This document shows, one piece after another, positions 27,057 to 57,202 of a stretch of 64,000 bases of DNA. Position 1 is the first letter of the stretch. Each line of letters opens with the position of its first letter. The stretch is taken from contig OZ245002.1 in the NCBI GenBank assembly GCA_965223415.1, forward strand, positions 5,472,001 to 5,536,000. Reading direction: 5' to 3'. Position numbers and translations under genes: made by a program. Under the pieces are notes generated by a model that did no database searches, was not told where the DNA came from, and worked only from the letters and a program-made list of their open reading frames with translations. Source of the DNA: Myxococcota bacterium (lineage in GTDB: Bacteria > Myxococcota_A > UBA9160 > UBA6930).

Positions 27057-27104
27057 TCCCCGAGGCTAGGTCACTGGGGGAAGTTTCCCACCCGGGGTCG
27101 CGCT

Positions 27105-27120
27105 GGGCACGAATCCTGCG
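27105..27120 (+). promoter_or_regulatory. Candidate sigma-54 promoter GGGCACG-AATC-CTGCG
   Basis: -24/-12 spacing; upstream of the 27238 gene. Confidence 0.55.
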
Positions 27121-27237
27121 AACATGGACGATTGGATCGAGGAGGGACCCAGGAGGACGCCGATTGGCGCACTCCGCCCCGGCGCGCTGGGGCGACATGG
27201 TTCACGGGTTCCCTTCCCGACCCGAGGAGGGGTCGAG

Positions 27238-30200
27238 ATGCTGGTTTGCCGTGCCGTGCCTGCGTGGCTGTGGGGATTCATCGCGGCGGGGCTCGCCCTG
27301 CCCTCGCCGGCCGCGGCCATCGACCTGTGGGACGGACGCGTCGAGATCCACGGCGCCTTCGAGATGCAGCTGCGCACGATGGCGCGCGATCTCGACATGT
27401 CCGACGACATCGACCTCACCCAGTGGTACAACATCATCAACCTGGAGATCGAAGCGGATCTGGCGCCGGACGGCTGGGGCCCCTTCGACCTCATCTCGGG
27501 CTTTGCACGCATCGAGGGGCGCTACGACTGCGTGTGGCGGCGCGGCTGCGGCCTCTTCCCGAACGTCGACGTGTACGGCGACCGGCCCGGGCGCCAGCCG
27601 AAGCGCCTCGCGGATGGCCGCCGGGCGGGCTTCCGCTCGACGGGCCAGCTCTTCAACGGCGACACGCGCTTCTTCCGCGACATCCCCCGAGAGTTCCTGC
27701 CCTACCGCTTCCGGGACCGCGATCGCGGCTCCCGGGTCGTCTCGCCCTTCTTCAACATCCAGGGCATCGACACCCTCTTCGACTCCCCCGGTGCTGACGG
27801 CGTCTTCGGAACCGAGGACGACCCGGCGCCCTTCTACTTCGCCGAGATCCTCGCCGACGACTGCGACTTCAACTTCCGCAAGCGCCGCGGCAGCATGGAC
27901 GGCGTCGGGAGCCAGATCATGGGCCCCTGGCAGCCCGCGTGCACGATCCGGCCCCTCGGAAAGCTGGCGGACAAGCCCAACCCCTTCTCCCGGCTCGATC
28001 GCTCGCCCATCACCGGCCGAATCGGCGCGGGCGAGCTCCCCTACCGGCCCGCACCCGCCGTGGCTGCCGACCACTGGGCGCCGAAGGACGTGGCCCGCGG
28101 CGCCTACTACCCGAACGAGCGCCTCCAGCAGGCCCTGCGCGAGAGCCGCTTCGATGGCTTCGACCAGAACTTCACGGTGAACGAGCTGCAGTGGAACCAG
28201 GGCGCGAGCCAGCAGGACGAGAAGTGGCTGAAGGAGGCCTATCTCGACGTCGAGGCCGTCGACAGCCAGCTCTGGCTGCGGCTCGGCAAGCAGACCATCG
28301 TCTGGGGCAAGACCGAGCTCTTCCGCAACCAGGACCAGTGGAATCCCCAGGATCTGGCCCTCGCCTCCCTGCCCAGCCTGGAGGACTCGCGTATCGCCCT
28401 GTGGGCGGCGCGCGCCGTGTGGTCCTTCTGGAATGTGGGGCCCTTCGAGGACGTCCGCGCCGAGGCCGTCGTCCTGATGGACCAGTTCGAGCCTGCCGAT
28501 CTGGGCCGCTGCGGCGAGCCCTACGCGCCCAACCCGGTCTGCGACAAGACCCTGGGCCTGTTCATTCACGGCCTCACCGGCTTCGGGGTCGCCGGCGAGC
28601 GGCGCCCGCCGAACCCGTGGAACAGCTGGCACGGCGTGGAGTTCGGCGCCCGCCTCGAGTGGCGCTACGACCGCTTCTCCTTCGCGCTCACGGACTACTA
28701 CGGCTTCACCGACATGGCCTACCAGGAGACGCTCTTCCGCTATGCCCGGAACGTCGATCCCGGGAGCGGACGGCCCCGTCACACCATGACCGAAGGCCGC
28801 TGCCGGACCGGGCGCGAGGGCGCGTGCCTCGACTCGGACGAGGCGCTCACCCGCCACAGTGCCAACCAGCAGCTCTTCGCCATGATCTGCTCGACGAGCA
28901 TCGGCTTCAGCTCCCTCGACCTGAGCGCCTGCGGCCAGTCCGTGCTGAACAGCCTGGCGACCGTCGACAACGACAATCCCGCCACGCCGGGGGTCGTCGA
29001 GGTGGCACCCCTTCCGGTGGTCGGGGTGGTCGGCACGATCCTCTCGGGCCAGAACGCGGCGGGCATCTTCGGCCCGACCCACGGCAACCAGTTCCTGCCC
29101 ACCCTGGCCGGCTACACGCCGGCTACCGTCACGGCGATCGCCGCCAACGCGCCCTTCGCCCAGTCCTACTTCAACCTCACCACCTTCACGACCGATCCCA
29201 CCGTGCTCGTGCCCCTGGTGGCCGACCCGGCCGACGGCGGCCAGGCCTTCGTCAGCCAGTATCCGGCCTCGGTCCAGGCGGCTCTGATCGCCGGCGCCGT
29301 CCCGCCGCTCCAGTCCAACGCGTTCCTCTCGAACGGCCTCTCCCCGTTCCTGACCGACGAGCAGGAGGCCCTGCTGGGGTGCGGCCCGTTCTACGGGACG
29401 AACTGCGACATCGACGGCGTCGACCTGCTGAACGCCGAGGCCACCGCACTGTTCCAGTCCTTCCCCGGCATCGCCGGCACCTTCGGCACCGACTGGGACA
29501 CCACCGACCGAGGCCTCGCCCAGCCCGGCACCGTCGGATTCGATCACGGGCCGCTGTGCACCCGCTGGGACGGCAGCGAGGTCGTGATCCTGCCGGGCTG
29601 CCGGGCCCCCGGCGAGGACGGCTACAGCCGGCTCGTCGACGGCAGCACCGCCGGTCAGGTCCATCCCTTCGTCGGCCAGGCCTGGCGCAGCGAGATGTCC
29701 ATCGTCTCGTGGAACTTCCTGATGGGCCTGGTCGGTCTCTCCAGCGCCGACGATCCGGCCAACCCCACCGAGAGCGACTTCGCGCCGAACAACCCGTTCC
29801 GCAAGAACGGCTGCTCCTTCGCCAAGCCCCAGCTCTGCAGCGTGGTGCAGTCCTTCTTCCAGATCACCGGCGTGCAGCGCAACACCCGCCGGGCCGGCGG
29901 CAACCACCGCTTCGGCCGGCGCGACTTCGCATGGCACGGAGGGCGCGACATCGTCCTCCGCTACCAGAAGCGCAACATCCTGGGCTTCTCCCTGGACTTC
30001 GCGGAAGACGTGACGAAGTCGAACGTCGGCCTCGAGTTCACCTGGGAGAACGACGTCCACCTGGCCGACTTCGACCGCATCGACGGCCTCACCGAGGTCG
30101 ACCAGTTCAACCTCACCGTCTCCGTGGACCGGCCGACCTTCATCAACTTCCTGAACGCCAACCGCACCTTCTTCATCAACACCCAGTGGTTCTTCCGCTA

Positions 30201-30561
30201 CGTGTCGGGCTACGAGGAGAGCTTCGCGAGCAGCGGCCCCTGGAACGTGCTGGCGGTCCTGACGGTGAACACCGGCTACTTCGACGACAGGCTCCAGCCG
30301 AGCATGCAGTTCGTGTACGACTTCCCATCGAACTCGAGCGCCATGATCAACCAGGTGACCTACCGGTACTCCTCGGACTTCTCGGTCACCTTCGGCTTCG
30401 CCCTCTTCCAGGGCCGTGAGGAGCGCCGCAACATGCCCCTCGTCCCGACCTCCCTCACGAACCGCGTCGGCCGGCACGCCTACAAGGACTTCGTCGAGAA
30501 CGGCCTCGCCGCCGTCCGGGACCGCGACGAGTTCTTCGTCCGCCTCCGCTACACCTTCTGA
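27238..30561 (+). CDS. Large outer-membrane beta-barrel protein (DUF1302-like) with Cys-rich insertions
   Basis: Signal peptide (AAA-ID), LKEAYLD, LRLGKQTIVWGKT, C-terminal RLRYTF. Confidence 0.7.
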   Translation: MLVCRAVPAWLWGFIAAGLALPSPAAAIDLWDGRVEIHGAFEMQLRTMARDLDMSDDIDLTQWYNIINLEIEADLAPDGWGPFDLISGFARIEGRYDCVWRRGCGLFPNVDVYGDRPGRQPKRLADGRRAGFRSTGQLFNGDTRFFRDIPREFLPYRFRDRDRGSRVVSPFFNIQGIDTLFDSPGADGVFGTEDDPAPFYFAEILADDCDFNFRKRRGSMDGVGSQIMGPWQPACTIRPLGKLADKPNPFSRLDRSPITGRIGAGELPYRPAPAVAADHWAPKDVARGAYYPNERLQQALRESRFDGFDQNFTVNELQWNQGASQQDEKWLKEAYLDVEAVDSQLWLRLGKQTIVWGKTELFRNQDQWNPQDLALASLPSLEDSRIALWAARAVWSFWNVGPFEDVRAEAVVLMDQFEPADLGRCGEPYAPNPVCDKTLGLFIHGLTGFGVAGERRPPNPWNSWHGVEFGARLEWRYDRFSFALTDYYGFTDMAYQETLFRYARNVDPGSGRPRHTMTEGRCRTGREGACLDSDEALTRHSANQQLFAMICSTSIGFSSLDLSACGQSVLNSLATVDNDNPATPGVVEVAPLPVVGVVGTILSGQNAAGIFGPTHGNQFLPTLAGYTPATVTAIAANAPFAQSYFNLTTFTTDPTVLVPLVADPADGGQAFVSQYPASVQAALIAGAVPPLQSNAFLSNGLSPFLTDEQEALLGCGPFYGTNCDIDGVDLLNAEATALFQSFPGIAGTFGTDWDTTDRGLAQPGTVGFDHGPLCTRWDGSEVVILPGCRAPGEDGYSRLVDGSTAGQVHPFVGQAWRSEMSIVSWNFLMGLVGLSSADDPANPTESDFAPNNPFRKNGCSFAKPQLCSVVQSFFQITGVQRNTRRAGGNHRFGRRDFAWHGGRDIVLRYQKRNILGFSLDFAEDVTKSNVGLEFTWENDVHLADFDRIDGLTEVDQFNLTVSVDRPTFINFLNANRTFFINTQWFFRYVSGYEESFASSGPWNVLAVLTVNTGYFDDRLQPSMQFVYDFPSNSSAMINQVTYRYSSDFSVTFGFALFQGREERRNMPLVPTSLTNRVGRHAYKDFVENGLAAVRDRDEFFVRLRYTF

Positions 30562-30584: not shown

Positions 30585-31070
30585 TCAGCCGCCCATCGGG
30601 TCGAGGGTGACGACGTCGTCGCGGAGCAGGTTCTCGGAGAGGACCGACTCCTCCTCGTGGAGCATGTCGGTCTCGATGTCCGCGATGAGGAAGAGGGTGC
30701 GCCGGGCCAGGCGGCCGATGTCCGCGTTGGGCTTGCTCAGCTCCTGGACGTAGGAGAGGAGCAGCTTCCGCTGGTCGCGGTGCTCGTCGAGGACGAGCTG
30801 GGCCCGCTCCTCCCCCCAGGCGTCCACGGTGCGCAGCAGCGGCACCATGAAGCGCTCCTCCATGTCCAGATGGCGGAAGAACCGATCGGCGAAACGCTCC
30901 GCCTCGCGCTTGAGCTCGACGCTCCGGGTCCGATCCCCGGTCCGCGCCCACTCGGCGGCGGCACGGAGATCGCGGAGCAGGAGGCGGAGGCGGGCGTGGT
31001 CCTCGAGCACCATGCGGCGGATTTCGCTCGGGCGGAGCTCCCCTGGCCGCTCGGTACCTTCGGTCGTCAT
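30585..31070 (-). CDS. Hemerythrin/HHE-domain protein
   Basis: EDH, HLDMEE, DEH, HEEE; ATG overlaps upstream stop. Confidence 0.75.
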   Translation of the reverse strand: MTTEGTERPGELRPSEIRRMVLEDHARLRLLLRDLRAAAEWARTGDRTRSVELKREAERFADRFFRHLDMEERFMVPLLRTVDAWGEERAQLVLDEHRDQRKLLLSYVQELSKPNADIGRLARRTLFLIADIETDMLHEEESVLSENLLRDDVVTLDPMGG

Positions 31071-32497
31071 CGTGGATCCTCCGTGGCCCGCCGAAGGGGC
31101 GTCGGACGCCGAGCCGCGTCCACGAGCTCCCGACAAGCCTCATCGGTCGCCACGACGAGCTCATGAAGGTCCGGGAAGGCGTCCCAATCCGCATTGAAGC
31201 CCCAGGAGAGGCCGGCGGGTCCGTAGGCCAGGGAGATCCCGAGGGCGAGGCCGTGGGTGACCGGCTCGATAGGGATGGTCTCCTCGACGGGCGCCTCCAG
31301 CAGGAACCGGGGACTGGAGGGGCCGTGCTCGACGGCGATCACCAGGTGGAAGGGGTGGCGGCTGCGCAGGACGCGTGTGGCCAGGGAGAAGATGGCGCCG
31401 GGGATCTGCGTGCCGAGCTCCGCCAGCAGGCCCGCGCCCCGTCCCTGCTCCCGGGCCTCGCGGCTGCGGGTGCGGCGACGGACCTCCTCCAGGCGTCGCA
31501 CCGGGTCCGGCTCGTCCAGGGGCAGCAGGGTCATCCACGCGACCTGCTCGCCGGCGGCCGCCTCCGCCGCCACGTCGAGGGGCGCGAGGGCACGCAGCTC
31601 GAAGCCGTCGAGATCGATGGCGCGCGTCTCGGCGAGGAAGCGGGCCAGGGCGCGCGCCGCACAGGTGAGCGCGATCTCCTCGACACTCGCACCGAAGCGA
31701 CGCACCACCGAATCGACCGCCTCGCGATCCATCCGGCACCAATCGGTGCGGCGGAGCGAGCTCACCCGCACGTCGAAGGGGCTGTCGGAGCCGTGGTGGA
31801 GGCCGCTGGCGACGGCCTGCCCGACGGCTCGGAGGCGCTCGCCGAGCCCGGCCTCCCCCGGCTCCGGCGCGACCCAGCGACGCATGCGCTCCCACCAGGT
31901 GGCGGGCAGCTGCGCCAGCTCCTGCAGCTCGTCGAGCGCGAGCTCGGCCCGACTCGGCCGGGGATGGGGGCGCCAGTGGGCGGGCGGACCGACCTTGTCC
32001 GATGGTTCGTCGGCGAGGAGCGCATAGGGCAGCCCGGTGCGATGCTCTGGATCGTCCACGCACACGTGCAGCTTGCTCGCGAGCACCACGCGCTCGTCCT
32101 CGAGCCCCTCGATGATCCAGAGCTCCCAGAGCGGGCGGCCCGGGTCGAGCGGCGTGGCCGCGATGCGGCCGATGAGGCGCTTCAGCTGGCGCTCGCTCCC
32201 GGGGCGGGGAAGCCGGACGTGTCGAACGTGATAGTCGAGGTCCACGTCTTCCGCGTCCACCCAGATCGGCTGGGTCTCGAGAGGAAGCTCGGCGATCACC
32301 TGGCGGTAGCGGTGGAGATCCCCGATTCGCGCCGCGACCCGGTCGCGGATGCGGTTCACCGCGACGCTCCCCGTGTCGTTGCGCAGACCGGCGGCGGGAA
32401 AGCGCTGCACCCGCAGCACGTGGAGCGGGGCGTCCGGGTGCTCGAGCTTGAGGAAGCCCTGCTCTCTCGCGGTCAGGTGCTCGTAGTCCGCGTGCAT
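31067..32497 (-). CDS. Wax ester synthase/DGAT-like protein with degenerate active site
   Basis: DLDYHVRHVRLPRPG, PLDPGRPLWELWIIEGL; HHxxxDG position reads KLHVCVDDP. Confidence 0.8.
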   Translation of the reverse strand: MHADYEHLTAREQGFLKLEHPDAPLHVLRVQRFPAAGLRNDTGSVAVNRIRDRVAARIGDLHRYRQVIAELPLETQPIWVDAEDVDLDYHVRHVRLPRPGSERQLKRLIGRIAATPLDPGRPLWELWIIEGLEDERVVLASKLHVCVDDPEHRTGLPYALLADEPSDKVGPPAHWRPHPRPSRAELALDELQELAQLPATWWERMRRWVAPEPGEAGLGERLRAVGQAVASGLHHGSDSPFDVRVSSLRRTDWCRMDREAVDSVVRRFGASVEEIALTCAARALARFLAETRAIDLDGFELRALAPLDVAAEAAAGEQVAWMTLLPLDEPDPVRRLEEVRRRTRSREAREQGRGAGLLAELGTQIPGAIFSLATRVLRSRHPFHLVIAVEHGPSSPRFLLEAPVEETIPIEPVTHGLALGISLAYGPAGLSWGFNADWDAFPDLHELVVATDEACRELVDAARRPTPLRRATEDPR

Positions 32498-32532: not shown

Positions 32533-32548
32533 AGCAAGACGCATGCCG
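32533..32548 (-). promoter_or_regulatory. Sigma-54 promoter CGGCATG-CGTC-TTGCT
   Basis: Upstream of WS/DGAT-like gene and its GGAGGTGG SD. Confidence 0.7.
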
Positions 32549-32670: not shown

Positions 32671-32686
32671 CGGCACGCCGCTTGCG
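32671..32686 (+). promoter_or_regulatory. Sigma-54 promoter CGGCACG-CCGC-TTGCG
   Basis: Upstream of the 32728 gene. Confidence 0.7.
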
Positions 32687-32727: not shown

Positions 32728-33735
32728 ATGCGTTTCGGACGGTCGAGCTGGCTCGGATGGGGATTGGCCACGGCTCTGGGCCTGGCCATGGGAGGAGGCG
32801 TGGCCAGCGCCTCGGCACAGGAAGGGGGGTCCTGCGACGGCTTCCTTCCGGACTTCACCTGCGATCGGTCCGGCCGCTGGGAGGGCTTCCACCGTCCCAT
32901 CGTGTCGTTCCCGTTGTTCGAGGACCCGTTCATCACGACGGGGATCTATCCCTACTACGCGTTCCACGAGTTCCCGGATCGCTCGGCCTTGCAGGGCGGC
33001 GAGGCCCACGACGTGTCGGTGCAGGCGCGCATCGCGCTCACCGACCGGCTGGCGTTCATCGCCACCAAGGACGGCTACGTCTGGAAGCGGCCTGACAACC
33101 CGCTCCTCGACGATACGGAGGGCACCCTGAACCTGGCCGGCGGCCTGAAGTACGCCCTCGTCCAGGACGAGGAGGCCGGCTACATCGTGTCCGGCGTGCT
33201 GCGCGTGGAGTTCGACACGGGCAGCTCGGACACCTTCCAGGGCTGGGGCGACGGCATGGTGCTGCCCTCGGTCACCGGCGCCTGGGGGAGCGGCCCGCTC
33301 CACATCATGGCCGACATCGGGGCCCAGATCCCCTTCGACGGCGATGACCAGAGCACGTCGCTCTTCTACCACCTGTATGCCGACTACAACGTGACCCCGA
33401 ACTTCGCGCCCTTCGTGCAGCTGAGCGGCCTCACCTGGATCAGCTCGGGCAACGGCGAGATCCCGGTCAAGCTGAAGCGCGGCATCGTGCCCGGCAGCGA
33501 GCTGCCGCTCGACCTGGTGCAGACCGTGCTCGGCACGGGCGCCTTCGAGGGTGCGGACCTGATGAATCTGGGCTCGCGGAACGTCGACGGTCTCGACCTC
33601 TGGACCTGGGCGATCGGTGCTCACATCCCGCTCACCGACCACATCACGTTCAGCGTCGGCTACGAGCGCCCCTTCAGTCACCACAAGGGGATCTTCAAGC
33701 AGCGGGTGACGAGCGGGCTGACGATCGAGTTCTGA
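32728..33735 (+). CDS. Putative outer-membrane beta-barrel protein
   Basis: Signal peptide (ASA-Q), amphipathic strands, C-terminal LTIEF. Confidence 0.6.
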   Translation: MRFGRSSWLGWGLATALGLAMGGGVASASAQEGGSCDGFLPDFTCDRSGRWEGFHRPIVSFPLFEDPFITTGIYPYYAFHEFPDRSALQGGEAHDVSVQARIALTDRLAFIATKDGYVWKRPDNPLLDDTEGTLNLAGGLKYALVQDEEAGYIVSGVLRVEFDTGSSDTFQGWGDGMVLPSVTGAWGSGPLHIMADIGAQIPFDGDDQSTSLFYHLYADYNVTPNFAPFVQLSGLTWISSGNGEIPVKLKRGIVPGSELPLDLVQTVLGTGAFEGADLMNLGSRNVDGLDLWTWAIGAHIPLTDHITFSVGYERPFSHHKGIFKQRVTSGLTIEF

Positions 33736-33840: not shown

Positions 33841-34287
33841 CTAGGCCACCACCGGCCCCGGCCCCTCGTAGCGCTCGCGCAGGATGGCGGCCAGCACGCG
33901 GCAGACGTCGGTGAGGGTGAGGATGCCCGCCAGGCGGTCGTCCTTGGCGACGAGGGCGGTGCCGATCCTTCGCTCGGCCAGCACGTCGAGGACGTCCGCC
34001 AGGGATGCGTCGAGGGAGGCCACGTAGGGATCGGGGGTCATCACCTGCTCGGCGTGGATGCGCTCCCAGCCGTCGGTGGGGAGCGCCGGGTTCACCAGCC
34101 GATCGACGTCGCGCCGGCTGATGACGCCGACCAGCGCGCCGTCGCGCTTCACGGGCACGTGGCGGACGCCGTGGTCGTCCATGAGGCGGCGGACGCGGCC
34201 CAGGGAATCCCCGGCCTCGGCGAAGTAGGGAAACGGCGTCATGACGGCCGCCAACGTGGGCATCCGGTCGTGATCGCGAAGGTGCAT
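33841..34287 (-). CDS. CBS-domain protein
   Basis: VMTP, RHVPV, VGVISRRD, GILTLTD. Confidence 0.88.
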   Translation of the reverse strand: MHLRDHDRMPTLAAVMTPFPYFAEAGDSLGRVRRLMDDHGVRHVPVKRDGALVGVISRRDVDRLVNPALPTDGWERIHAEQVMTPDPYVASLDASLADVLDVLAERRIGTALVAKDDRLAGILTLTDVCRVLAAILRERYEGPGPVVA

Positions 34288-34319: not shown

Positions 34320-34335
34320 AGCAAGCAGCGTGCCG
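34320..34335 (-). promoter_or_regulatory. Sigma-54 promoter CGGCACG-CTGC-TTGCT
   Basis: Upstream of CBS gene 34287. Confidence 0.75.
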
Positions 34336-34438: not shown

Positions 34439-34454
34439 TGGCACGGATCCTGCG
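34439..34454 (+). promoter_or_regulatory. Sigma-54 promoter TGGCACG-GATC-CTGCG
   Basis: Upstream of USP gene 34469. Confidence 0.7.
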
Positions 34455-34468
34455 AAACCCGGAGAGAG

Positions 34469-35792: not shown

Positions 35793-35819
35793 GCGGACGA
35801 ATCCTCCTACTCGAATCGA

Positions 35820-35835
35820 AGCAACGGTCGTGCCA
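35820..35835 (-). promoter_or_regulatory. Sigma-54 promoter TGGCACG-ACCG-TTGCT (full consensus)
   Basis: Exact TGGCACG-N4-TTGCW upstream of CBS gene 35792. Confidence 0.85.
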
Positions 35836-35873: not shown

Positions 35874-35890
35874 TGGGGCGCTCCACCCCA
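35874..35890. promoter_or_regulatory. Candidate activator site TGGGG-N7-CCCCA
   Basis: Perfect inverted repeat 38 nt upstream of the sigma-54 motif. Confidence 0.65.
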
Positions 35891-38023: not shown

Positions 38024-39435
<1,412 letters not shown>

Positions 39436-47580: not shown

Positions 47581-47596
47581 CGGCATGCCGGTTGCT
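47581..47596 (+). promoter_or_regulatory. Sigma-54 promoter CGGCATG-CCGG-TTGCT
   Basis: Upstream of the HPF-like gene and di-iron operon. Confidence 0.7.
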
Positions 47597-47608
47597 TCCC
47601 ATGCGGTC

Positions 47609-49618: not shown

Positions 49619-49881
49619 GTCTCGACGAACCCCGCCAGCGGTTCGACCTCGACGATCGGGGCTTCGACGAGGTGCCCCGCAAGTACCGCAAGTACTACCG
49701 GCGCTGGGAGGGGCCCGACGACGAGCTCGGCCCCAACGAGATCCTGTGCCCGGTCTGCAAGATCGTGGTCCGATCCAATCGCGAGCTGCGCCCGGGCGAT
49801 CGGATGTACTGTATGGCGTGTCTGACGAGGCTGCGGATCACCGAGGCCGAGGGCCGATTGGAGGCCGAGGTCGAGTACTGA
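49615..49881 (+). CDS. Small CxxC..CxxC metal-ribbon protein
   Basis: CPVC and CMAC; coupled to both neighbours. Confidence 0.75.
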   Translation: MSLDEPRQRFDLDDRGFDEVPRKYRKYYRRWEGPDDELGPNEILCPVCKIVVRSNRELRPGDRMYCMACLTRLRITEAEGRLEAEVEY

Positions 49882-50330
49882 TGCGCACCTCCTGGACATG
49901 GGAGCCCCGAGACACCATGGACCAGCCCGGTGCGCACAAGCGGATGAGCCTCGAAGCCCGGCGCATCTCCTCCCAGCACCGCAAGCTCAACATGCTCCAC
50001 CGCGTGGTGGTCGACGCCATCAACCGCGCCCGCCCCGCCGAGTGCATCACCGCCTTCAAGCGCTTCCGGGAGGCCCTCGACTCCCACTTCTCCCTGGAGG
50101 ACGAACTCTACTTCCCGGCCCTCCACGGCCTGCGCCGCGACCTGTCCGCCACCCTCGAACGGCTGAGCCAGGAGCACGCCGCCCTGCGAAGCCGCCTGGC
50201 GGAGCTGGAGGCGGCGTTCGTCGAGGCCCGGCTGGACGAGTGCGCGCGGCTCCTCGATACCGTGGGCGCGGCGATCGCCGACCACGAGAGCCGGGAAGAG
50301 CAGGTGCTGCGGGCGTTCCGCGATTCCTAG
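49881..50330 (+). CDS. Hemerythrin/HHE-domain protein (start could be 49917)
   Basis: SQH, HFSLEDELYFP, QEH, HESREE. Confidence 0.78.
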   Translation: MRTSWTWEPRDTMDQPGAHKRMSLEARRISSQHRKLNMLHRVVVDAINRARPAECITAFKRFREALDSHFSLEDELYFPALHGLRRDLSATLERLSQEHAALRSRLAELEAAFVEARLDECARLLDTVGAAIADHESREEQVLRAFRDS

Positions 50331-50523
50331 TCCCGGCCGGTGGGTCGAGATCCGAAAACCCCTCGCTCTCGCGCTCCGGGCAGGCGTCGTCGTCGTAGAC
50401 GTGCCGGAACGAAGGCCCCTCCCAGTCCTCGAACTGGCCCTCCCGGGCCGCCCGGAGCACCAGGGCCAGGAGCAGGGCCGCGAGCAGCAGCGAGACCGGC
50501 AGGGTCACGGCGAGGAAGCTCAT
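50056..50523 (-). CDS. ccoS: cbb3 oxidase maturation protein CcoS (homology ends ~50390; long read-through tail)
   Basis: TM helix then GQFEDWEGP..DDD; ATG overlaps ccoI stop. Confidence 0.75.
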   Translation of the reverse strand: MSFLAVTLPVSLLLAALLLALVLRAAREGQFEDWEGPSFRHVYDDDACPERESEGFSDLDPPAGTRNRGTPAAPALPGSRGRRSPRPRYRGAARTRPAGPRRTPPPAPPGGFAGRRAPGSAVRGWRTGRGAGRGGPGSRVRPPGRSGSRGPPGSA

Positions 50524-52700
50524 GCGTCGGGGCTCCAGCGCAGCAGCCGGATCGCGTTGCCGGTCACCACGAGAGACGACGCGCTCATGGCGATCGCTGC
50601 GTGGAGGGGCTCGAGCCAGCCGGCCACCGCGAGCGGAACGGCCACCAGGTTGTAGAGCAGCGCGAAGCCCAGGTTCTCGCGGATGCGGGCCACGCAGGCC
50701 CGGGCCAGGCCCAGGGTCGTCGGGAGCGCCGTGAGACGAGGCGAGCGGATCACCAGATCGGCCGCGTGGAGGGTGACGTCGGAGCCGCGGTGCATGGCGA
50801 GGCCGACGTCGGCGGCTCCGAGGGCGGCGGCGTCGTTGATGCCGTCGCCGGCCACGAGCACACGGCGGCCGGCCCGTCGCAGGGTGCGCACCTGGGCGAC
50901 CTTCTCCTCCGGCGACTGCTCGGCGTGGACCACCGGCACGCCCGCAGCGGCGGCGGCCAGACGGGCGGCCGTAGGGTGGTCGCCGGTCACGAGGGAGGCG
51001 GCGACGCCCTGGCGCTGCAACGCCTCCACGGCCAGGCCGGCGTCCTCCCGCGGCGGATCCCAGAGAGCGAGCAGGCCCAGAACCTCCTCGTCCCGTGAGA
51101 CGGCGACGAGGCTCAGGCCCGCCGCGGCGGCCTTGTCCGCGGCCTCGCGGAGCGGCGCGGGCAGCGCGGCCCCCGCCTCCTCCAGCCAGCGCGGAGAGCC
51201 CGCGCGCAAGAGCGCATCTCCCGCCCGCGCCTCGACGCCAGCACCGGGCCAGGTGCGCCGCTCCGTGAGCTCGGGCAGCACGGCGTCGGCGGCGGCCTCG
51301 CGCAGGGCCTCGGCCACGGGATGGGTCGAGGCGCCTTCGACGGCGGCGGCCCAGAGCCGGAGCTCCTGCTCGCTCACGCCGGGCGCGGTGTGCAGCTCGC
51401 GCACGGCGAAGCGCCCCTCGGTGAGGGTGCCGGTCTTGTCCAGGGCCACCGCGTCGACCCCGGCGCAGCGCTCCAGCGCCTCGCCGCTCTTCACCAGGAT
51501 GCCGAGGGACGCGGCGCGGCCGACGGCGGCGGTGATCGCCGCGGGCGTGGCGAGACCGAGAGCGCAGGGACAGGCCACGATCAGCACGGCGGCGGTGGCG
51601 AGCGCCACGTCCAGGGGCGCGGCCCCCTTCCACAGCCAGAAGCCGGCGGTGGCGGTGGCGATGGCCAGCACCGCCGGCGCGAAGACCGAGGCCACCCGGT
51701 CCGCCAGCCGTTGGATGCGGGGCCGCTCGGCCTGGGCGCGCTCGAGGAGCGCCGCCATCTTGGCGAGGGTGCCCTCGGCGGGCCGAGCCACGACCTCGAT
51801 CTCCGCTTCCACCAGCAGGTTGCGGCTGCCGCCGATCAGGAGCTCGCCGGGCTCCCGCAGGACCGGGCGCGCCTCGCCCGTGAACGGCGCCTCGTCCACC
51901 TCGGTGGCGCCGGAGCACAGGCGCCCGTCGGCGGGCACGGCCTGGCCGGCGGGGACGAGGACGCGGTCGCCTACCGCGAGACTCGCGGCGTCCACCTCGA
52001 CGGGGCCCTCGGGCGTGCACAGGAGCGCCTTCGGCGGCGCCAGGGCGGCCAGGCGATCGACCGCCGAGCGTGCCTTGCCCCGCGCGCCGCGCTCGAGGGT
52101 GCGGCCGAGGAGCACCAGGAAGACGATCATGGCCGCCGAGTCCATGTAGAGGTGCGACGTGCCGGCGAGAGTACCGGCCACGCCGACCCCGAAGGCGGTC
52201 GTGATGCCGGCGACGATGGGCACGTCGACGGAGAGCTCGCCGCAGCGCAGTCCGCTCCAGGCCCCGCGCCAGAAGGGTGCCGCACACCAGGTGATCGCCG
52301 GCACCGTGAGCACCAGCGTGAGCCAGCGCAGGACCTGGCGCACGGCCGGATCCATGCCCTGGTAGCTGCCGGAGTAGAGAGCGACCGAGAGCCACATCAC
52401 GTTGCCGGCCAGGAAGGCCGCCACCAGCAGGCGCACGAGGGCGGCGCGCTGGCTGCCGGCGGCCGGCCGATCCAGCACCTCCGGGTCGAAGGGGGTCGCG
52501 TCGTAGCCGAGCTCGCGCACCACCCCGACGAGGGCGTCGGCGGAGCTGCGCTCCGGGTCGATGCGCACCAGGGCCCGGTGGCTGGTGTAGTTCACGGCGG
52601 CCTCGTCCACGCCGTCGGCAGCGCGCAGGGCCCGCTCCACCCGGTTCACACAGCCGGCGCAGTGGAGCCCGTCCAGGAAGAGGCCGACGTCCGCGGTCAT
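50520..52700 (-). CDS. ccoI: Cu-type P1B ATPase CcoI/FixI
   Basis: HCAGC HMA domain, TGE, CPCALG, DKTGT, GDGIND; cco context. Confidence 0.9.
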   Translation of the reverse strand: MTADVGLFLDGLHCAGCVNRVERALRAADGVDEAAVNYTSHRALVRIDPERSSADALVGVVRELGYDATPFDPEVLDRPAAGSQRAALVRLLVAAFLAGNVMWLSVALYSGSYQGMDPAVRQVLRWLTLVLTVPAITWCAAPFWRGAWSGLRCGELSVDVPIVAGITTAFGVGVAGTLAGTSHLYMDSAAMIVFLVLLGRTLERGARGKARSAVDRLAALAPPKALLCTPEGPVEVDAASLAVGDRVLVPAGQAVPADGRLCSGATEVDEAPFTGEARPVLREPGELLIGGSRNLLVEAEIEVVARPAEGTLAKMAALLERAQAERPRIQRLADRVASVFAPAVLAIATATAGFWLWKGAAPLDVALATAAVLIVACPCALGLATPAAITAAVGRAASLGILVKSGEALERCAGVDAVALDKTGTLTEGRFAVRELHTAPGVSEQELRLWAAAVEGASTHPVAEALREAAADAVLPELTERRTWPGAGVEARAGDALLRAGSPRWLEEAGAALPAPLREAADKAAAAGLSLVAVSRDEEVLGLLALWDPPREDAGLAVEALQRQGVAASLVTGDHPTAARLAAAAAGVPVVHAEQSPEEKVAQVRTLRRAGRRVLVAGDGINDAAALGAADVGLAMHRGSDVTLHAADLVIRSPRLTALPTTLGLARACVARIRENLGFALLYNLVAVPLAVAGWLEPLHAAIAMSASSLVVTGNAIRLLRWSPDA

Positions 52701-52897
52701 CCCTGCGCCTCCACCTCCCGCGGGTGGAAGCCGCTGCGTCCGCCGTCGGCTTCGAAGGCCTCGTCCACGATGACCGGGTCCGGCGTGCGGTAGGCAACGA
52801 CGGCGAAGCCGATCGACACCAGCATCATCAGGGCGAGCATCGAGGCGAGGATCCAGGGCCAGGGCTCGGTGCGGCGCTCCGTCGGGTCAGCCTGCAT
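52697..52897 (-). CDS. Very short CcoH/FixH-like protein
   Basis: PWPW + TM helix + DPVI; lies between ccoG and ccoI. Confidence 0.55.
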   Translation of the reverse strand: MQADPTERRTEPWPWILASMLALMMLVSIGFAVVAYRTPDPVIVDEAFEADGGRSGFHPREVEAQG

Positions 52898-54203
52898 CGC
52901 GGATCTCCGGTGTGAGGAAGTGGGTCGGCCGCACGAGGGGGCGATCGCCCCCCTCGACCGGCTCGAGCACGAAGCGCAGCTCCTTGCGGGTTCCGTCGGG
53001 CTCCCAGCCGAGCGGCGCCATCACGAAGACGCGGGCCTCCACCGCGTCGGTCGGCCCGACGGGGATCGGGTTCTGGCCGGCGATCAGGGCGAAGTCGGTA
53101 CCCGTGGCCTCGACGCGGATCCGGTAGGCGTGCTCGACCCGATCGCGGTTCTCGAGGCGGAGGGTGAAGGCGTTGCCATAGCGCCCGTCCGCGGCGCGAC
53201 CGAACAGGGCCTGGCGGTTGTGCATGACCGTGAAGTCCATCGGCACGCGCACCATGAGCAGCGCGGCAAAGGCCACGCCGGCAGCGACGAGCATGCCGCC
53301 GTAGACGACCACCCGGGGCCGCAGGACCCGGGCCGGCCGGGTGCCCTCGAGGGCCGAGAGCGCGCGGTATCCGATCAGCTCGGGCTCCCGGCCAGTGCGG
53401 GCCATCACCCCGTTGCAGGCGTCGATGCACTGGGTGCAGGTGATGCATTCGAGCTGCAGGCCGTCGCGGATGTCGATCTCGGTGGGGCAGACCTGCACGC
53501 AGAGGCCGCAATCGACACAGTCGCCTGCGACGGTCCCGCGCTTGCCCCGCGGCTCGCCGCGGGCCCGGTCGTAGCTGATGACGAGGGTGTCGCGGTCGAA
53601 CAGCACGCCCTGGAAGCGGGCGTAGGGGCAGAGATAGCGACAGAAGGTCTGCTTCACGACGACGAAGTCGAGGTAGGAGAGGACGGCCATCACCACGAGG
53701 AAGCCGAAGGCGGCGCCGTAGGGGCCGCCGGACTGGAGGCGTTCCAGCAGCTGGTAGGGCGAGGCGAAGTAGGCCACGAGGTGGAAGCCGATCACGAGGG
53801 AGAGTCCCATCCACACGAGGTGGGTGAGCAGGATCCGCCAGGCCGCGACCCGCTCGGGCGGCCGCGGCCCCTTCCAGCCCTGGAGGAAGCGCGCCACCAC
53901 GGCGAAGACATCGGTGAAGACGGTCTGCGGGCAGGCCCAGCCGCACCAGACGCGCCCGAGGAGGGCCGTGAAGAAGAAGAGCGCCAGGGCCAGCGCTGCC
54001 AGGATCAGCCACAGGAAGTAGAGCTCCTGGGGCGCGATCACGAGGCCCAGCACGTGGAACTCGCGGGCCGGGATGTCGAGCTGCACCAGGGGCTCGCCGC
54101 CGATCCGGATCCACGGGATCCCGAACAGGACGGCGATGAGCGCCACGTCGGCCCAGGCGCGCAGCGTACGGAACCGGCCGCTCACCGCGCGAGCGGAGAG
54201 CAC
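52887..54203 (-). CDS. ccoG: cbb3 oxidase accessory protein CcoG/FixG
   Basis: GRVWCGWACPQTV, CRYLCPY, CVDCGLCVQVCP, CITCTQCIDAC. Confidence 0.93.
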   Translation of the reverse strand: MLSARAVSGRFRTLRAWADVALIAVLFGIPWIRIGGEPLVQLDIPAREFHVLGLVIAPQELYFLWLILAALALALFFFTALLGRVWCGWACPQTVFTDVFAVVARFLQGWKGPRPPERVAAWRILLTHLVWMGLSLVIGFHLVAYFASPYQLLERLQSGGPYGAAFGFLVVMAVLSYLDFVVVKQTFCRYLCPYARFQGVLFDRDTLVISYDRARGEPRGKRGTVAGDCVDCGLCVQVCPTEIDIRDGLQLECITCTQCIDACNGVMARTGREPELIGYRALSALEGTRPARVLRPRVVVYGGMLVAAGVAFAALLMVRVPMDFTVMHNRQALFGRAADGRYGNAFTLRLENRDRVEHAYRIRVEATGTDFALIAGQNPIPVGPTDAVEARVFVMAPLGWEPDGTRKELRFVLEPVEGGDRPLVRPTHFLTPEIRDAG

Positions 54204-54206
54204 GCC

Positions 54207-54782
54207 CTACCCCCCTGCGCCCTGCTGGGCCTGGGCCGCGTCGTGCTCCGGCGAGCCCACGCCGGGCTCGTCGGTGCGCTCGAGGGTCTCCATGTAGGCG
54301 AGCACCTTCCAGATCTTCTCGTTGCCGAGCTGGGGGCCCCAGGGCGGCATGCCGAGGGGCCGGCCGGCGTTCACCGTCTCGAAGAGCGCGGCGTCGCTGT
54401 CGCCGTACTTCCAGTAGGGATCGATCACGCTCGGACCCACGAGCCCCCGCCCGTCGGGCAGGTGGCAGGCGACGCAGATCTGGGTCCACACCTCCTGGCC
54501 CTGGGCGATCGCGGCGCTGTCGCCGCGGTACGGATTCGTGTCCGGGAGGGCCTCGCGCACGGAGGCGAAGGCGGCTTCCGCCTCGGCGACCTCGGCCTGC
54601 CAGCGCTCCGCCTGGGAGTGCGGCGCCATGGCGCCGTAGAAGAAGATGTAGCCGAGCCCGTAGAGGATCAGCCCATAGAAGCCCAGGTTGAACCAGGCCG
54701 GGATCGCGTTGTCCTCTTCGCCGATGCCGTCCCGCTCGGGCTCGTCCACCAGCGGCCGCTCGGGAATCTGCTCCGAGCTCAT
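54207..54782 (-). CDS. ccoP: cbb3 oxidase subunit III, short monohaem form
   Basis: DGIGEEDNAIPAW, single CVACH, GMPPWG. Confidence 0.85.
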   Translation of the reverse strand: MSSEQIPERPLVDEPERDGIGEEDNAIPAWFNLGFYGLILYGLGYIFFYGAMAPHSQAERWQAEVAEAEAAFASVREALPDTNPYRGDSAAIAQGQEVWTQICVACHLPDGRGLVGPSVIDPYWKYGDSDAALFETVNAGRPLGMPPWGPQLGNEKIWKVLAYMETLERTDEPGVGSPEHDAAQAQQGAGG

Positions 54783-54931
54783 TCTCCGTCCTCCTCGAGC
54801 ATGCGGTGGGCAGGCGCTTCGAAGCGCGCCCTCTGGCCGGGCCGGAAGAGCCACACGCCGATACCGACCAGAACCAGGGCCAGGAACGCCAGACGGCCCA
54901 GCTTGTAGAGGGCGACCCACTCCTCGCTCAT
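54779..54931 (-). CDS. ccoQ: cbb3 oxidase subunit CcoQ
   Basis: 50 aa, single TM, RARFEAPA..ED; between ccoO and ccoP. Confidence 0.8.
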   Translation of the reverse strand: MSEEWVALYKLGRLAFLALVLVGIGVWLFRPGQRARFEAPAHRMLEEDGE

Positions 54932-55611
54932 CGGGCCGCTCCCTTCACCGAGGTCCCCAGGGACTGCAGGTAGGCGATCAGCGCCACGGTCTCGCTGCGG
55001 GCCTGGGCTTCGCTCAGCTCGATGCGATCGCGCCGGAGCTCCGCTGCGATGGCGTCGGCCTGAGCCAGGGCGTCCCGCCCCGCGTTCGCCACCTCGGCGT
55101 CCTCGTAGGGCGCGCCCAGCATGCGGAGCACCTCCAGCTTGCGAGGGAGCGTCGAGGTATCGATCGGTCTCGACGAGAGGAAGGAGAAGCTCGGCATGTT
55201 CGAGCGCGGCTCGATCTTCTGCGGGTCCTCGAAGTGCAGCCAGTGCCAGGAGTGTGGGTAGCGCCCGCCGACCCGCGCCAGGTCCGGCCCCGTGCGGCGG
55301 GAGCCGAACAGGAAGGGCCGGTCGTAGACCGACTCGCCGGCCAGGGAGTACGGCCCGTAGCGGTCGGTCTCGGTCTTGAAGGGCCGCACCTGCTGGCTGT
55401 GGCAGGTGTTGCAGCCCTCGCGCACGTAGATGTCCCGGCCCTCCTGCTCGAGGGCGGTGTAGGGCCGGTGGCCCTCGATCGTCTCCACCGTGCCCTGGAG
55501 GTAGAAGGGAGGGATCAGCAGGACGAGGCCGCCGACCACGATGCACAGCAGGGTGAGCCCGGTCAGGGACAGCCACTTCCGCTCCAGGGGGCGATGCCAC
55601 TCGTACGCCAT
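54928..55611 (-). CDS. ccoO: cbb3 oxidase subunit II
   Basis: GRDIYVREGCNTCHSQQVRP, GSRRTGPDLAR, SNMP. Confidence 0.95.
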   Translation of the reverse strand: MAYEWHRPLERKWLSLTGLTLLCIVVGGLVLLIPPFYLQGTVETIEGHRPYTALEQEGRDIYVREGCNTCHSQQVRPFKTETDRYGPYSLAGESVYDRPFLFGSRRTGPDLARVGGRYPHSWHWLHFEDPQKIEPRSNMPSFSFLSSRPIDTSTLPRKLEVLRMLGAPYEDAEVANAGRDALAQADAIAAELRRDRIELSEAQARSETVALIAYLQSLGTSVKGAAR

Positions 55612-55612
55612 C

Positions 55613-57070
55613 TCAGCGCCCTCCCGCCACGGCGGCCGCGGCGCCGGCCGGGGGCGCGTCGGCCTCCGGGACCTCCACCGAGCCCTGCTGGATCGTCTTC
55701 CAGACGTTGTAGACCATCACCAGGGCGCCTCCGAGGAAGAAGACGCCGCCCACCACGCGGATCACGTCGTAGATACGAATGGCAGAGACGGTCTCGATGA
55801 AGGTGTAGGTGAGGCTCCCGTCCGGGTTGACCGCCCGCCACATGAGGCCCTGGGTCACGCCGGACACCCACATCGGCGTCACGTAGAGCACGATGCCGAG
55901 GGTGGCGACCCAGAAGTGCACCTCGGCCAGGCGCTGGCTGTAGAGCTTCGTGTGCCACAGCCGCGGCACCATGTAGTAGAGGGTGGCGAAGCAGGTGAGC
56001 GCCACCCAGCCGAGGGCGCCGGAGTGGACGTGGCCGATCGTCCAGTTGGTGAAGTGGGAGAGCGAGTTCACCGAGCGGAGCGACATCATCGGCCCCTCGA
56101 AGGTGCTCATCCCGTAGAAGGTCAGCCCCACCGCGAACATCTTGAGCAGCGGATCCGTGCGCACCTTGTGCCAGGCGCCGCGGAGGGTGAGCAGCCCGTT
56201 CAGCATCCCGCCCCAGGAGGGGAAGATCAGCATGATCGAGAAGGCGGCACCGAAGGTCTGTGCCCAATCCGGCAGCGGCGAGTAGATCAGGTGATGCGGC
56301 CCGGCCCAGATGTAGATGAAGATCAGCGACCAGAAGTGCAGGATCGAGAGCCGGTGGGAGAAGATCGGCCGCCCCGCCTGCTTCGGCAGGAAGTAGTACA
56401 TGAGGCCCAGGATCGGCGTGGTGAGCAGGAAGCCCACCGCGTTGTGGCCGTACCACCACTGGATGTTCGCATCGTAGACGCCGGAGTAGGCCGAGTAGGA
56501 CTTCATCCACGAGACCGGCCAGGCCATGCTGTTCGTGATGTGCAGCATGGCGATGGTCAGCACCGTCGCGACCCAGAACCAGATGGCCGCGTACATCGCC
56601 TTCTCCCGCCGCTTGGCGAGAGTGCCGAAGACATTGATCGCGTAGACCACCCACACGACGGCGATGGCGATGTCGATGGGCCACTCGAGCTCGGCGTACT
56701 CCTTGGCGGTGGAGTAGCCCCCGAGCAGACTCACGGCGGCGGCGACGATGATGCCGTTCCACAGCCACAGGTTGATCCGCGAGAGCGTGTCGCTGAACAT
56801 CCGCACGCGGCACAGGCGCTGGAGCCCGTAGTAGGTGCCCGCAAAGACCACGCCCAGCGTGAAGCCGAAGATCACCGCGTTCGTATGGACCGGGCGCACG
56901 CGCCCGAAATGCAGGTACGGCCCCCAGTTCCATTCCGGCCAGGCCAGCTGGATCGCAGCCAGCAGTCCCACCAGCATGCCCACCACACCCCACAGCAGCG
57001 CTGACAGGGAAAACCCCCGCACCACCGCCATGTCGTAGAGGACGGGCTCGGCGTTCGTTCGTGTGCTCAC
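55613..57070 (-). CDS. ccoN: cbb3 oxidase subunit I
   Basis: RPVHTN, KEYAELEW, QWWYGHNAVGF, GPHH, WTIGHVH; GTG start with GGAAGG SD. Confidence 0.95.
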   Translation of the reverse strand: MSTRTNAEPVLYDMAVVRGFSLSALLWGVVGMLVGLLAAIQLAWPEWNWGPYLHFGRVRPVHTNAVIFGFTLGVVFAGTYYGLQRLCRVRMFSDTLSRINLWLWNGIIVAAAVSLLGGYSTAKEYAELEWPIDIAIAVVWVVYAINVFGTLAKRREKAMYAAIWFWVATVLTIAMLHITNSMAWPVSWMKSYSAYSGVYDANIQWWYGHNAVGFLLTTPILGLMYYFLPKQAGRPIFSHRLSILHFWSLIFIYIWAGPHHLIYSPLPDWAQTFGAAFSIMLIFPSWGGMLNGLLTLRGAWHKVRTDPLLKMFAVGLTFYGMSTFEGPMMSLRSVNSLSHFTNWTIGHVHSGALGWVALTCFATLYYMVPRLWHTKLYSQRLAEVHFWVATLGIVLYVTPMWVSGVTQGLMWRAVNPDGSLTYTFIETVSAIRIYDVIRVVGGVFFLGGALVMVYNVWKTIQQGSVEVPEADAPPAGAAAAVAGGR

Positions 57071-57099
57071 GCAAAGGCCCCCTTCCGCGCCGGACGTCG

Positions 57100-57115
57100 T
57101 GCAGGAGAGATGCCA
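57100..57115 (-). promoter_or_regulatory. Sigma-54 promoter TGGCATC-TCTC-CTGCA
   Basis: Upstream of ccoN. Confidence 0.65.
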
Positions 57116-57185
57116 ACGCAGGGCGGCATGAAACGGGCTCTCCGCGGGAAGGCGGCCCAATGCCTCCCCAACCCTGGCCTCACAT

Positions 57186-57202
57186 TGGGGCTCGGCGCCG
57201 CA
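57186..57202. promoter_or_regulatory. Candidate activator site TGGGG-N7-CCGCA
   Basis: One mismatch to the palindrome; a half site ending CCCCA lies at 57154-57170. Confidence 0.55.

Follow-up and report, generated by a model that had tools for sequence, protein, structure and literature searches.

Background

The closest described counterpart of the system reported here is NmpRSTU of Myxococcus xanthus. NmpU, a protoglobin kinase and a homologue of AfGcHK, requires haem (PMC6211767, PMC11841059). It is reported to phosphorylate the two-receiver protein NmpT and, at its receiver, the hybrid kinase NmpS; NmpR is not phosphorylated by it in vitro (PMC6211767). At low oxygen (O2) NmpS is described as unphosphorylated and as phosphorylating the NtrC-like regulator NmpR (PMC6211767, PMC11841059). 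NmpR binds two copies of GCGCA-N5-TGCGC placed 14-15 bp apart and activates sigma-54 promoters; its reported targets are the CBS gene that heads its own operon, nmpUTS, a universal stress protein (USP) gene, a P-type ATPase with the cbb3 oxidase, and hemN with a hemerythrin, and NmpR is hypoxia-induced (PMC11841059). AfGcHK has as its partner a double-receiver protein of the NmpT type (PMC11841059); the O2-bound form is the active one in both AfGcHK and NmpU, and NmpS is required in Myxococcus as an inverter (PMC6211767). Here we describe a related system in a Myxococcota bacterium (contig OZ245002.1 of assembly GCA_965223415.1), where a block at positions 27,075-57,202 of a 64,000-nucleotide window holds a globin-coupled histidine kinase gene, directly followed by an NtrC-type activator gene, and thirteen sigma-54 (-24/-12) promoters. 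"The window" denotes this whole stretch, and positions refer to it unless they are called genomic.

Two further systems are alike in content. DosS/DosT-DosR of Mycobacterium tuberculosis joins a haem kinase and hypoxia to USPs, a CBS-pair protein, a triacylglycerol (TAG) synthase of the wax-ester synthase/diacylglycerol acyltransferase (WS/DGAT) type and ribosome hibernation. The sensor of DosS/DosT is a GAF-haem domain, and DosR is a NarL/LuxR-type regulator working with sigma-70; as there is no sequence relationship, the system is an analogy only. In rhizobia, FixL-FixJ-FixK likewise places cbb3 oxidase (fixNOQP-GHIS), hemN and denitrification genes under a haem kinase at low O2. FixL is a PAS-haem kinase inhibited by O2, and FixJ is a LuxR-type regulator acting via a FixK cascade without a sigma-54 enhancer. 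An O2-inhibited kinase such as FixL represents the logic that a direct pair at the present locus would need. The DosR and FixL systems are mentioned alongside NmpR in PMC11841059.

From the comparisons given below we consider it probable that the globin kinase and the activator form a direct pair, which would run a sigma-54-dependent low-oxygen regulon through a dyad, TGGGGC-N5-GCCCCA, in the block and elsewhere in the genome. The kind of system is not new, since this type of circuit, with much of what it controls, was published in 2018 and 2025. An earlier reading of the window, made from its letters (hereafter the original prediction), knew of no output map for globin-coupled kinases; that statement does not hold, as the map of NmpRSTU is in print (PMC6211767, 2018; PMC11841059, 2025). 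No publication describing a direct pair of globin kinase and activator, or the TGGGGC-N5-GCCCCA dyad, turned up in a literature search.

With NmpRSTU the locus shares the phylum, a protoglobin kinase and an NtrC-like sigma-54 regulator within one locus, a CBS-pair gene beside the regulator and, in silico, the targets CBS, USP, P-type ATPase with cbb3, hemN with hemerythrin, and the own operon. A 5-N5-5 dyad enhancer upstream of -24/-12 promoters, autoregulation and a proposed induction by low O2 would also be common to both. The signal there is relayed by NmpT and NmpS, whereas here neither lies beside the pair and the activator directly follows the kinase. The dyads differ, GCGCA-N5-TGCGC there and TGGGGC-N5-GCCCCA here; at up to one mismatch the former was found upstream of none of the block promoters and showed no distance peak genome-wide. 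The regulon predicted here is larger (15 high-confidence promoters, and 13 sigma-54 promoters in 30 kb), with nosZ, copper chaperones, WS/DGAT and hibernation promoting factor (HPF) as targets beyond those of NmpRSTU, and nor at two mismatches only.

The kinase and the activator

The host genome is a complete single contig of 5.83 Mb with 71% GC, of which the window covers 5472001-5536000. Genes were called by a codon-usage score trained on long open reading frames (ORFs) and named via Pfam and NCBIfam. What is reported below on the promoters and their enrichment, on the dyad with its phasing, and on conservation among relatives was established by computation. The two central genes are:

39548-40789, minus strand: globin-coupled histidine kinase, 413 aa; protoglobin PF11563 (8e-35), HisKA PF00512, HATPase_c PF02518
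38020-39435, minus strand: NtrC-type sigma-54 activator, 471 aa; REC PF00072, AAA+ PF00158 (4e-71), HTH_8 PF02954

The globin kinase and GAFTGA activator on which the original prediction was built are thus confirmed in their protoglobin-HisKA-HATPase and REC-sigma54-HTH_8 architectures. The kinase, the sole protoglobin match in the genome, fits the class of globin-coupled sensor histidine kinases, having an N-terminal sensor globin with the haem-ligand pattern followed by HisKA and HATPase_c. Its globin aligns with those of AfGcHK (5ohe), HemAT (1or4) and GsGCS (2w31), and the FY and RIGxxHxRIGL haem motifs are retained; the proximal His and distal Tyr (B10) follow the AfGcHK residue numbering. 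AfGcHK, from Anaeromyxobacter sp. Fw109-5 (5ohe, 5ohf, 6otd), has the same globin-HisKA-HATPase arrangement, and FY(B10) and RIGxxHxRIGL align between the two. The phmmer match of the block globin to this NmpU homologue is weak (E 3e-12, 50 bits) and no better than those to HemAT or the Geobacter sensor. AfGcHK works with a partner that has two receivers, whereas the block kinase adjoins a sigma-54 activator.

The translated activator contains D55, GESGTGKE and GAFTGA. Its best NCBIfam matches are NtrC, AtoC and ZraR, all under cut-off, and the kinase core is AtoS/ZraS-like (NCBIfam); a direct partnership fits, since these are families that pair together. Among the 30 PF00158 matches listed for the genome, 22 are strong (E ≤ 1.6e-48), giving about 22 sigma-54 activators. 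Neither an NmpT-type nor an NmpS-type gene lies in the block, and a genome-wide search with one phmmer query found no double-REC protein of the NmpT type. An unlinked 378-aa REC-kinase of NmpS-like architecture is encoded at genomic 1176607-1177743.

Sigma-54 promoters of the block

All thirteen -24/-12 motifs listed in the original prediction were recovered at their coordinates and orientation, 14-137 nt before a start codon. Each has GG-N10-GC together with 5-8 of eight further positions of TGGCACG-N4-TTGCW, the score given below as x/8. In order of position, with the genes that they precede, the sites are:

27105-27120, plus strand: sigma-54-like site before the gene of a large DUF1302 protein (27256-30561); GGGCACGAATCCTGCG, 5/8
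32533-32548, minus strand: promoter of WS/DGAT 31067-32497 and hemerythrin 30585-31070; CGGCATGCGTCTTGCT, 6/8
32671-32686, plus strand: promoter of the gene of a 335-aa protein (32728-33735) that has no Pfam or NCBIfam match; CGGCACGCCGCTTGCG, 6/8
34320-34335, minus strand: promoter of CBS pair 33841-34287; CGGCACGCTGCTTGCT, 7/8
34439-34454, plus strand: promoter of USP 34469-34915 and CBS pair 34912-35367; TGGCACGGATCCTGCG, 6/8
35820-35835, minus strand: promoter of CBS-pair gene 35346-35793, full consensus; TGGCACGACCGTTGCT, 8/8
39448-39463, minus strand: promoter of the activator operon (activator, tandem USP 37136-38023, amino-acid permease 35899-37125); TGGCACGCCCCGTGCT, 7/8
41605-41620, minus strand: promoter of the kinase operon (87-aa protein 41303-41566, CBS pair 40843-41289, globin kinase), within the 3' end of gene 41550-43208; TGGCACGGCATGTGCT, 7/8
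43230-43245, minus strand: promoter of P-loop kinase (AAA_33) fusion gene 41550-43208; TGGCACCGGCCCTGCA, 6/8
43255-43270, plus strand: promoter of CBS pair 43309-43782 and lipoprotein 43779-44945; TGGCACGCGCCGTGCA, 7/8
46886-46901, minus strand: promoter of cytochrome c 46427-46873 and CobW-like 45072-46427; GGGCCCACGTCTTGCT, 5/8
47581-47596, plus strand: promoter of the HPF operon (HPF 47609-47950, R2lox-like 47947-48831, di-iron protein 48833-49618, 88-aa protein 49615-49881, hemerythrin 49917-50330); CGGCATGCCGGTTGCT, 6/8
57100-57115, minus strand: promoter of the cbb3 oxidase operon ccoNOQP-ccoG-fixH-like-ccoI (50520-57070; Pfam COX1, FixO, FixQ, FixP_N, FixG_C, E1-E2 ATPase); TGGCATCTCTCCTGCA, 5/8

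The one full consensus that had been claimed is therefore site 35820-35835, and the motif said to sit before the activator itself is 39448-39463, 14 nt ahead of its ATG. The remainder of the window, where the original prediction had noticed no such motif before genes, contains no site of at least 5/8 within 250 nt upstream of a called start. A single PF04552 match (E 8e-63) shows rpoN to be present in the genome.

Between 27.2 and 57.1 kb the thirteen transcription units, each headed by a -24/-12 promoter, take in 31 of 32 called genes, the remaining one being a GNAT gene at 46912-47424. Besides the cbb3 operon (ccoNOQP, ccoG, a FixH-like gene and the P-type ATPase ccoI by Pfam), the block encodes two hemerythrins, six CBS-pair proteins, one single and one tandem USP, a short HPF, a WS/DGAT acyltransferase, a cytochrome c, two weakly di-iron-like proteins, a P-loop kinase fusion, an amino-acid permease and several proteins without family assignment. 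By annotation this set fits that expected for an oxygen-limitation response, and the proposed O2-response character of the block gains support, as cbb3, hemerythrins, USP, CBS, HPF and the wax-ester/TAG synthase would all suit O2 limitation. The GNAT acetyltransferase (minus strand), which the gene caller had skipped, is similar, though under cut-off, to mycobacterial Pat in the latter's C-terminal half.

The block is the densest region of sigma-54 promoters in the genome. Exact TGGCAC-N6-TGC occurs 71 times genome-wide, six of them in the block (0.37 expected), and of 216 oriented intergenic sites scoring at least 5/8, 11 lie in the block against 1.12 expected; one of these 11 (43665) proved intragenic on a later check, and three true sites had been missed through a miscalled ORF. 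Three sliding 30-kb counts all peak on the block, with 10-11 sites in two and seven in the third, where genome means are 0.6-2.3 and the best window outside reaches 9, 7 or at most 4 depending on the measure, the first two at ~4.25 Mb. With corrected gene calls, 12 sites fall in 2062 nt of block intergenic DNA, or 5.8/kb, against 0.84/kb in the rest of the genome (Poisson P 3e-7). The density is thus above the GC-matched intergenic background, which the original prediction had named as the comparison that could overturn it. In 200 dinucleotide shuffles of the block intergenic DNA, 0.87 +/- 0.90 sites were found (maximum 4; observed 11), and the window contains 32 copies of the looser TGGC-N8-TGC, where shuffled sequence gives 12.1 +/- 3.9. 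For TGGCAC-N6-TGC at up to one mismatch over the whole window the excess is not convincing (26 against 17.3, with 5 of 100 shuffles reaching 26). An iterated sigma-54 position weight matrix (PWM) drifted to T-rich sequence resembling ribosome-binding sites and was replaced by the fixed consensus score.

The second-densest zone, at genomic ~4.24-4.29 Mb, has 7-9 sites per 30 kb, contains norCBQD and a CBS unit, bears the dyad described below at just two promoters and includes a further activator gene (4279990-4281375).

At the activator, cytochrome c, HPF and USP genes the -12 GC stands 13-16 nt ahead of the start codon (39435-39463, 46873-46901, 47581-47611 and 34439-34471), and the same short spacing recurs at several targets outside the block. 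This distance, kept at 13-15 nt before the activator gene in most of eight relatives, suggests near-leaderless sigma-54 transcripts at these genes.

A phased candidate enhancer

When the upstream regions were read, TGGGG-N7-CCCCA was first noticed before the activator promoter and the full-consensus promoter. The exact palindrome occurs ten times in the genome, three of them in the block. Within 200 nt upstream of the 216 oriented intergenic sigma-54-like sites, 19 palindromes with at most one mismatch were found, and 15 are centred 47-49, 67-69 or 78-80 nt before the initial G of the -24 GG, where ~0.4 would be expected from the off-phase density; the remaining four are at 22, 24, 95 and 144 nt. 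As the distances step by ~10 and ~20 nt, the dyad stays on one helical face. Six control palindromes of the same composition gave 0-4 occurrences each, none phased, and the 200 nt downstream of the promoters gave five occurrences of the palindrome itself. Two positions that had not been imposed are C and G in 83% of sites, from which the consensus is cTGGGGC-N5-GCCCCAg. Divergent promoter pairs share a single dyad, at 47/78 or 48/69 nt from the two promoters. With a PWM of the dyad, 29 sites score at least 14 in the genome, five of them in the block (0.15 expected).

Strong phased dyads (PWM 16-19) stand at four of the thirteen block promoters, those of the activator operon, CBS gene 35346-35793, the HPF operon and ccoN, and weak half-site-like dyads (PWM 2-3.5; at 47 and 78 nt) lie between two divergent pairs:

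39501-39517, no strand: candidate enhancer of the activator promoter, exact TGGGG-N7-CCCCA; centre 47 nt from the -24 GG; PWM 19.0, best in the block
35874-35890, no strand: candidate enhancer of the 35820 promoter, exact palindrome; centre 48 nt from GG; PWM 18.8
47505-47521, no strand: candidate enhancer of the HPF promoter, one mismatch; centre 69 nt from GG; PWM 17.3
57186-57202, no strand: candidate enhancer of the ccoN promoter, one mismatch; centre 80 nt from GG; PWM 16.4
Weak dyad of the 34320/34439 pair: 47 nt from 34320, 78 nt from 34439; PWM 3.5
Weak dyad of the 32533/32671 pair: 47 nt from 32533, 78 nt from 32671; PWM 2.1
43797-43813, no strand: orphan exact palindrome TGGGGC-N5-GCCCCA in the signal-peptide codons of lipoprotein gene 43779-44945; PWM 18.5

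The positive autoregulation that had been proposed is in line with an exact candidate enhancer and a sigma-54 promoter preceding the activator's own gene, from which autoregulation is predicted. Promoters 27105, 41605, 43230, 43255 and 46886 have no dyad within 200 nt. The orphan palindrome has no sigma-54 site of at least 5/8 at a phased distance, and its role is unexplained; in the same-genus locus L014 its half-sites are kept and the spacer differs. A palindrome one base wider, TGGGG-N8-CCCCA, occurs 17 times in the genome (10 intergenic), which exceeds the count for every other spacing, and it may be bound by another factor.

Predicted targets outside the block

At up to one mismatch the phased dyad accompanies 15 promoters, four in the block and 11 elsewhere, and at up to two mismatches it accompanies 22 oriented intergenic promoters, 18 of them outside the block; from the off-phase density, ~4-5 of this wider set of 22 are expected by chance. 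The original prediction had described a physically clustered regulon, and the block is indeed its densest part, but the predicted regulon as a whole is dispersed, with 11 of the 15 best pairs of enhancer and promoter lying elsewhere.

Pfam searches of 46 proteins downstream of the out-of-block dyad promoters identified an unknown protein with SCO1/SenC and PCuAC copper chaperones; hemN, an amidohydrolase and a WS/DGAT gene in one operon; a nosZ cluster with NosD and cytochromes c; a CBS-CBS-USP unit; a CBS-hydrolase unit; a glutamate dehydrogenase operon; a P450; a thiolase-like protein with DUF2959; and a flavin monooxygenase. Dyads with two mismatches only precede norCBQD of the cNOR type, a hemerythrin and two further WS/DGAT genes. 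A paralogue of the DUF1302 protein of the block, at genomic 4400909, has a sigma-54 site and a two-mismatch enhancer at 49 nt. By their annotation these targets would be coherent with microoxic or anoxic respiration and quiescence.

Conservation in relatives

The relatives' loci are contigs of metagenome-assembled genomes (MAGs) from a largely uncultured Myxococcota order; they are kin and hence not independent, and their ccoN intergenic regions are not alignable. A full-length match to the kinase (52-80% identity) was found in 26 of 40 related genomes, and the activator lies directly 3' of it in eight of the nine public loci with downstream DNA, a count that leaves out L014, whose contig stops at the kinase. 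Other neighbours of the kinase belong to the same families, reshuffled. All eight relatives' loci inspected (L015-L021, L083) carry a sigma-54 promoter before the activator gene, mostly with the -12 GC 13-15 nt from the start, and in most of the eight there are related dyads with an AT-rich spacer upstream.

A sigma-54-like site was found within 400 nt upstream of ccoN in 12 of 14 relatives' loci, two others (L146, L150) having been dropped as their contigs begin inside the gene and hold no upstream DNA. A dyad of PWM at least 5 precedes nine of these 12 promoters at 30-130 nt, where the null rate is 3.6% per such stretch in the host genome, and in five relatives (G012, G020, G030, G031, G035) ccoN is on the kinase's contig, 3-30 kb away. 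At E ≤ 1e-100 ccoN was not found in five same-genus MAGs (G001-G005, 82-97% complete) and is present in other genera of the family. Across this order, then, the synteny and motif conservation proposed as a check are seen in the kinase-activator adjacency, the activator promoter and the ccoN promoter.

Among the other promoters, that of HPF has an enhancer-like site at 67 nt in its L014 orthologue too. The 87-aa gene of the kinase operon is preceded by a sigma-54 site in L016 and L018, the latter with an enhancer at 47 nt, and a scored site lies just upstream of it in L015 as well. In L014 and L019 the orthologous CBS gene is likewise preceded by the 43255 promoter, and the -12 GC of the 43230 promoter is not conserved in L014. 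The cytochrome c promoter GGGCCC-N5-CTTGCT is identical in L014, where one enhancer is common to it and the divergent HPF promoter. The GNAT gene is inserted in the host, compared with L014, between the HPF enhancer and the cytochrome c promoter, and this would explain why the 46886 promoter is without a dyad.

Of 201 Myxococcota genomes sampled, 23 have globin matches of at least 39% identity, and all 23 belong to the same order or class. Three other families of the phylum also have a globin-kinase gene next to an activator gene (L109-L111; G052, G179, G202); these pairs were considered as orthologues and rejected as non-orthologous: the activators of L109-L111 are 41-43% identical to that of the block, a paralogue level, and no dyad copy of PWM at least 12 occurs there. 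Such pairs may have formed more than once.

Mechanism and alternative explanations

The phosphotransfer, the dyad-binding protein, the ligand and the low-O2 induction are points that we infer, and the steps would be as follows. The haem of the cytoplasmic kinase would report a diatomic gas, most likely O2, and the kinase would set the phosphorylation state of the activator's receiver. The activator would then bind the dyad at one of its phased distances (47-49, 67-69 or 77-80 nt ahead of the -24 GG) and remodel the sigma-54 holoenzyme. Its strong-site targets in the block would be its own operon (positive autoregulation), the cbb3 operon, the HPF/di-iron/hemerythrin operon and one CBS gene, and the output would be a programme of low-oxygen respiration and quiescence, akin to FixLJ/FixK and DosR in content and to NmpR of M. 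xanthus in lineage.

Several points weigh against a direct pair acting in this way. The original prediction had the pair drive all thirteen promoters; just four have a strong dyad, however, four others being weak and five having none, and with ~22 activators in the genome the claim for all thirteen is unproven. The dyad could belong to another of these activators, and some block promoters probably answer to others. A search of seven dyad-poor upstream regions for another shared dyad (4+4 dyads, gaps 0-11) found none in at least five of the seven. In one relative (L022) a hemerythrin gene, not the activator, follows the kinase, and at hemN only 4 of 22 relatives' loci have a sigma-54-like site, with a dyad of PWM at least 9 in two of those four. 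On that count hemN was rejected as a conserved target, and as its promoter and dyad are kept in few relatives, the periphery of the regulon appears from these comparisons to be plastic. Every gene start and operon in the analysis rests on our own crude gene caller. Lastly there is a problem of sign: AfGcHK and NmpU are described as active with O2, NmpR as not phosphorylated by NmpU in vitro, and no inverter is linked to the pair here. Because of this, induction at low O2 would need either a globin kinase inhibited by O2, as FixL is, or an activator inactivated by phosphorylation; alternatively, an inverter might be encoded elsewhere, for example the REC-kinase at genomic 1176607-1177743. HoxA/HupR-like activators are inactive when phosphorylated. 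Tentatively, and at close to even weight, we advance a fuller reading in which the pair is wired directly across the whole order without an NmpS inverter, uses a new phased enhancer at 15-25 promoters and fuses a FixK-type microoxic and denitrifying gene set (cbb3, hemN, nosZ, nor, copper chaperones) with a DosR-type quiescence set (USP, CBS, WS/DGAT, HPF), the kinase being O2-inhibited or the activator inactivated by phosphorylation.

The uneven distribution of dyads could also mean that the block is a mixed island served by several activators, the adjacent one running only the dyad-bearing subset and perhaps the weak-site pairs too. This is a live possibility, which we nevertheless doubt. 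It would account for the five promoters without a dyad and the four weak ones, 22 strong PF00158 matches offer candidates, and the search for a second shared motif, which found none, also speaks for it. Against it, the dyad-less promoters serve families (CBS, cytochrome c, the kinase operon) that have dyads in relatives or paralogues. NtrC-type activators can moreover work from distant sites, and three promoters that lack a dyad of their own have a strong one 0.55-0.6 kb away. That the dyad is the site of a different regulator altogether, the pair having another target set, appears quite improbable. The link between pair and dyad does rest on position and conservation only, but the top block copy (PWM 19.0) stands before the activator promoter, with related dyads at that place in most of the eight relatives; of the 29 strongest copies, five are clustered near the pair; the helical phase relative to sigma-54 promoters is fixed, as with activator sites; and the non-orthologous pair loci L109-L111 are without a copy of PWM at least 12. 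Chance matches in GC-rich DNA have a practically negligible probability: the 71% GC of the genome and the loose one-mismatch count (26 against 17.3, reached in 5 of 100 shuffles) would allow them, and the genome-wide enrichment, the intergenic shuffles and the conservation in relatives contradict them.

A hidden relay, in which the globin kinase acts via an unlinked REC-HisKA-CA hybrid kinase that inverts the signal as in NmpRSTU, would solve the sign problem, and the 378-aa NmpS-like REC-kinase could fill that role; the report that NmpU does not phosphorylate NmpR in vitro (PMC6211767) points the same way. We regard it as improbable in view of the strict kinase-activator adjacency in eight of nine loci, the AtoS/ZraS-type core, which partners NtrC-family regulators, the failure of the query used to find a double-REC protein, and the lack of a hybrid kinase or double-REC protein beside the pair here, the relatives' pairs not having been searched for one. 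As to the ligand, nitric oxide (NO), carbon monoxide (CO) or the haem redox state might be sensed instead of O2, the regulon then being a nitrosative or denitrification response. The presence of nor and nosZ among the predicted targets favours this, as does the binding of NO and CO by globin sensors and DosS/DosT (PMC9062744, in part). It is rather unlikely all the same, since cbb3, hemN, the hemerythrins and USP/CBS/HPF are classic O2-limitation genes and the Myxococcus counterpart is described as hypoxia-induced (PMC11841059).

Implications

As the genome is complete in a single contig, it is possible to list everything that a globin-coupled kinase pathway is predicted to control. The main added value is a testable enhancer motif, a spacing rule and a genome-wide target list, which ties high-affinity respiration, the reduction of nitrous oxide (N2O) and NO, lipid storage and ribosome hibernation together in an uncultured Myxococcota order. 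It also provides a clean contrast with NmpRSTU of Myxococcus, the same gene classes being served by two components in place of four. With two components here and four there, the haem signal must have its sign dealt with in another way, and measuring this would show how a sensory relay becomes simpler or more elaborate in evolution.

Other features of the window

GC content falls to 63% at 14000-18700, where a DDE transposase (15100-16326, minus strand) and an IS200-type Y1 transposase (18161-18649, minus strand) are located. Directly after the block comes an ordinary cluster of lon, clpX, clpP and trigger factor genes (57975-63879).

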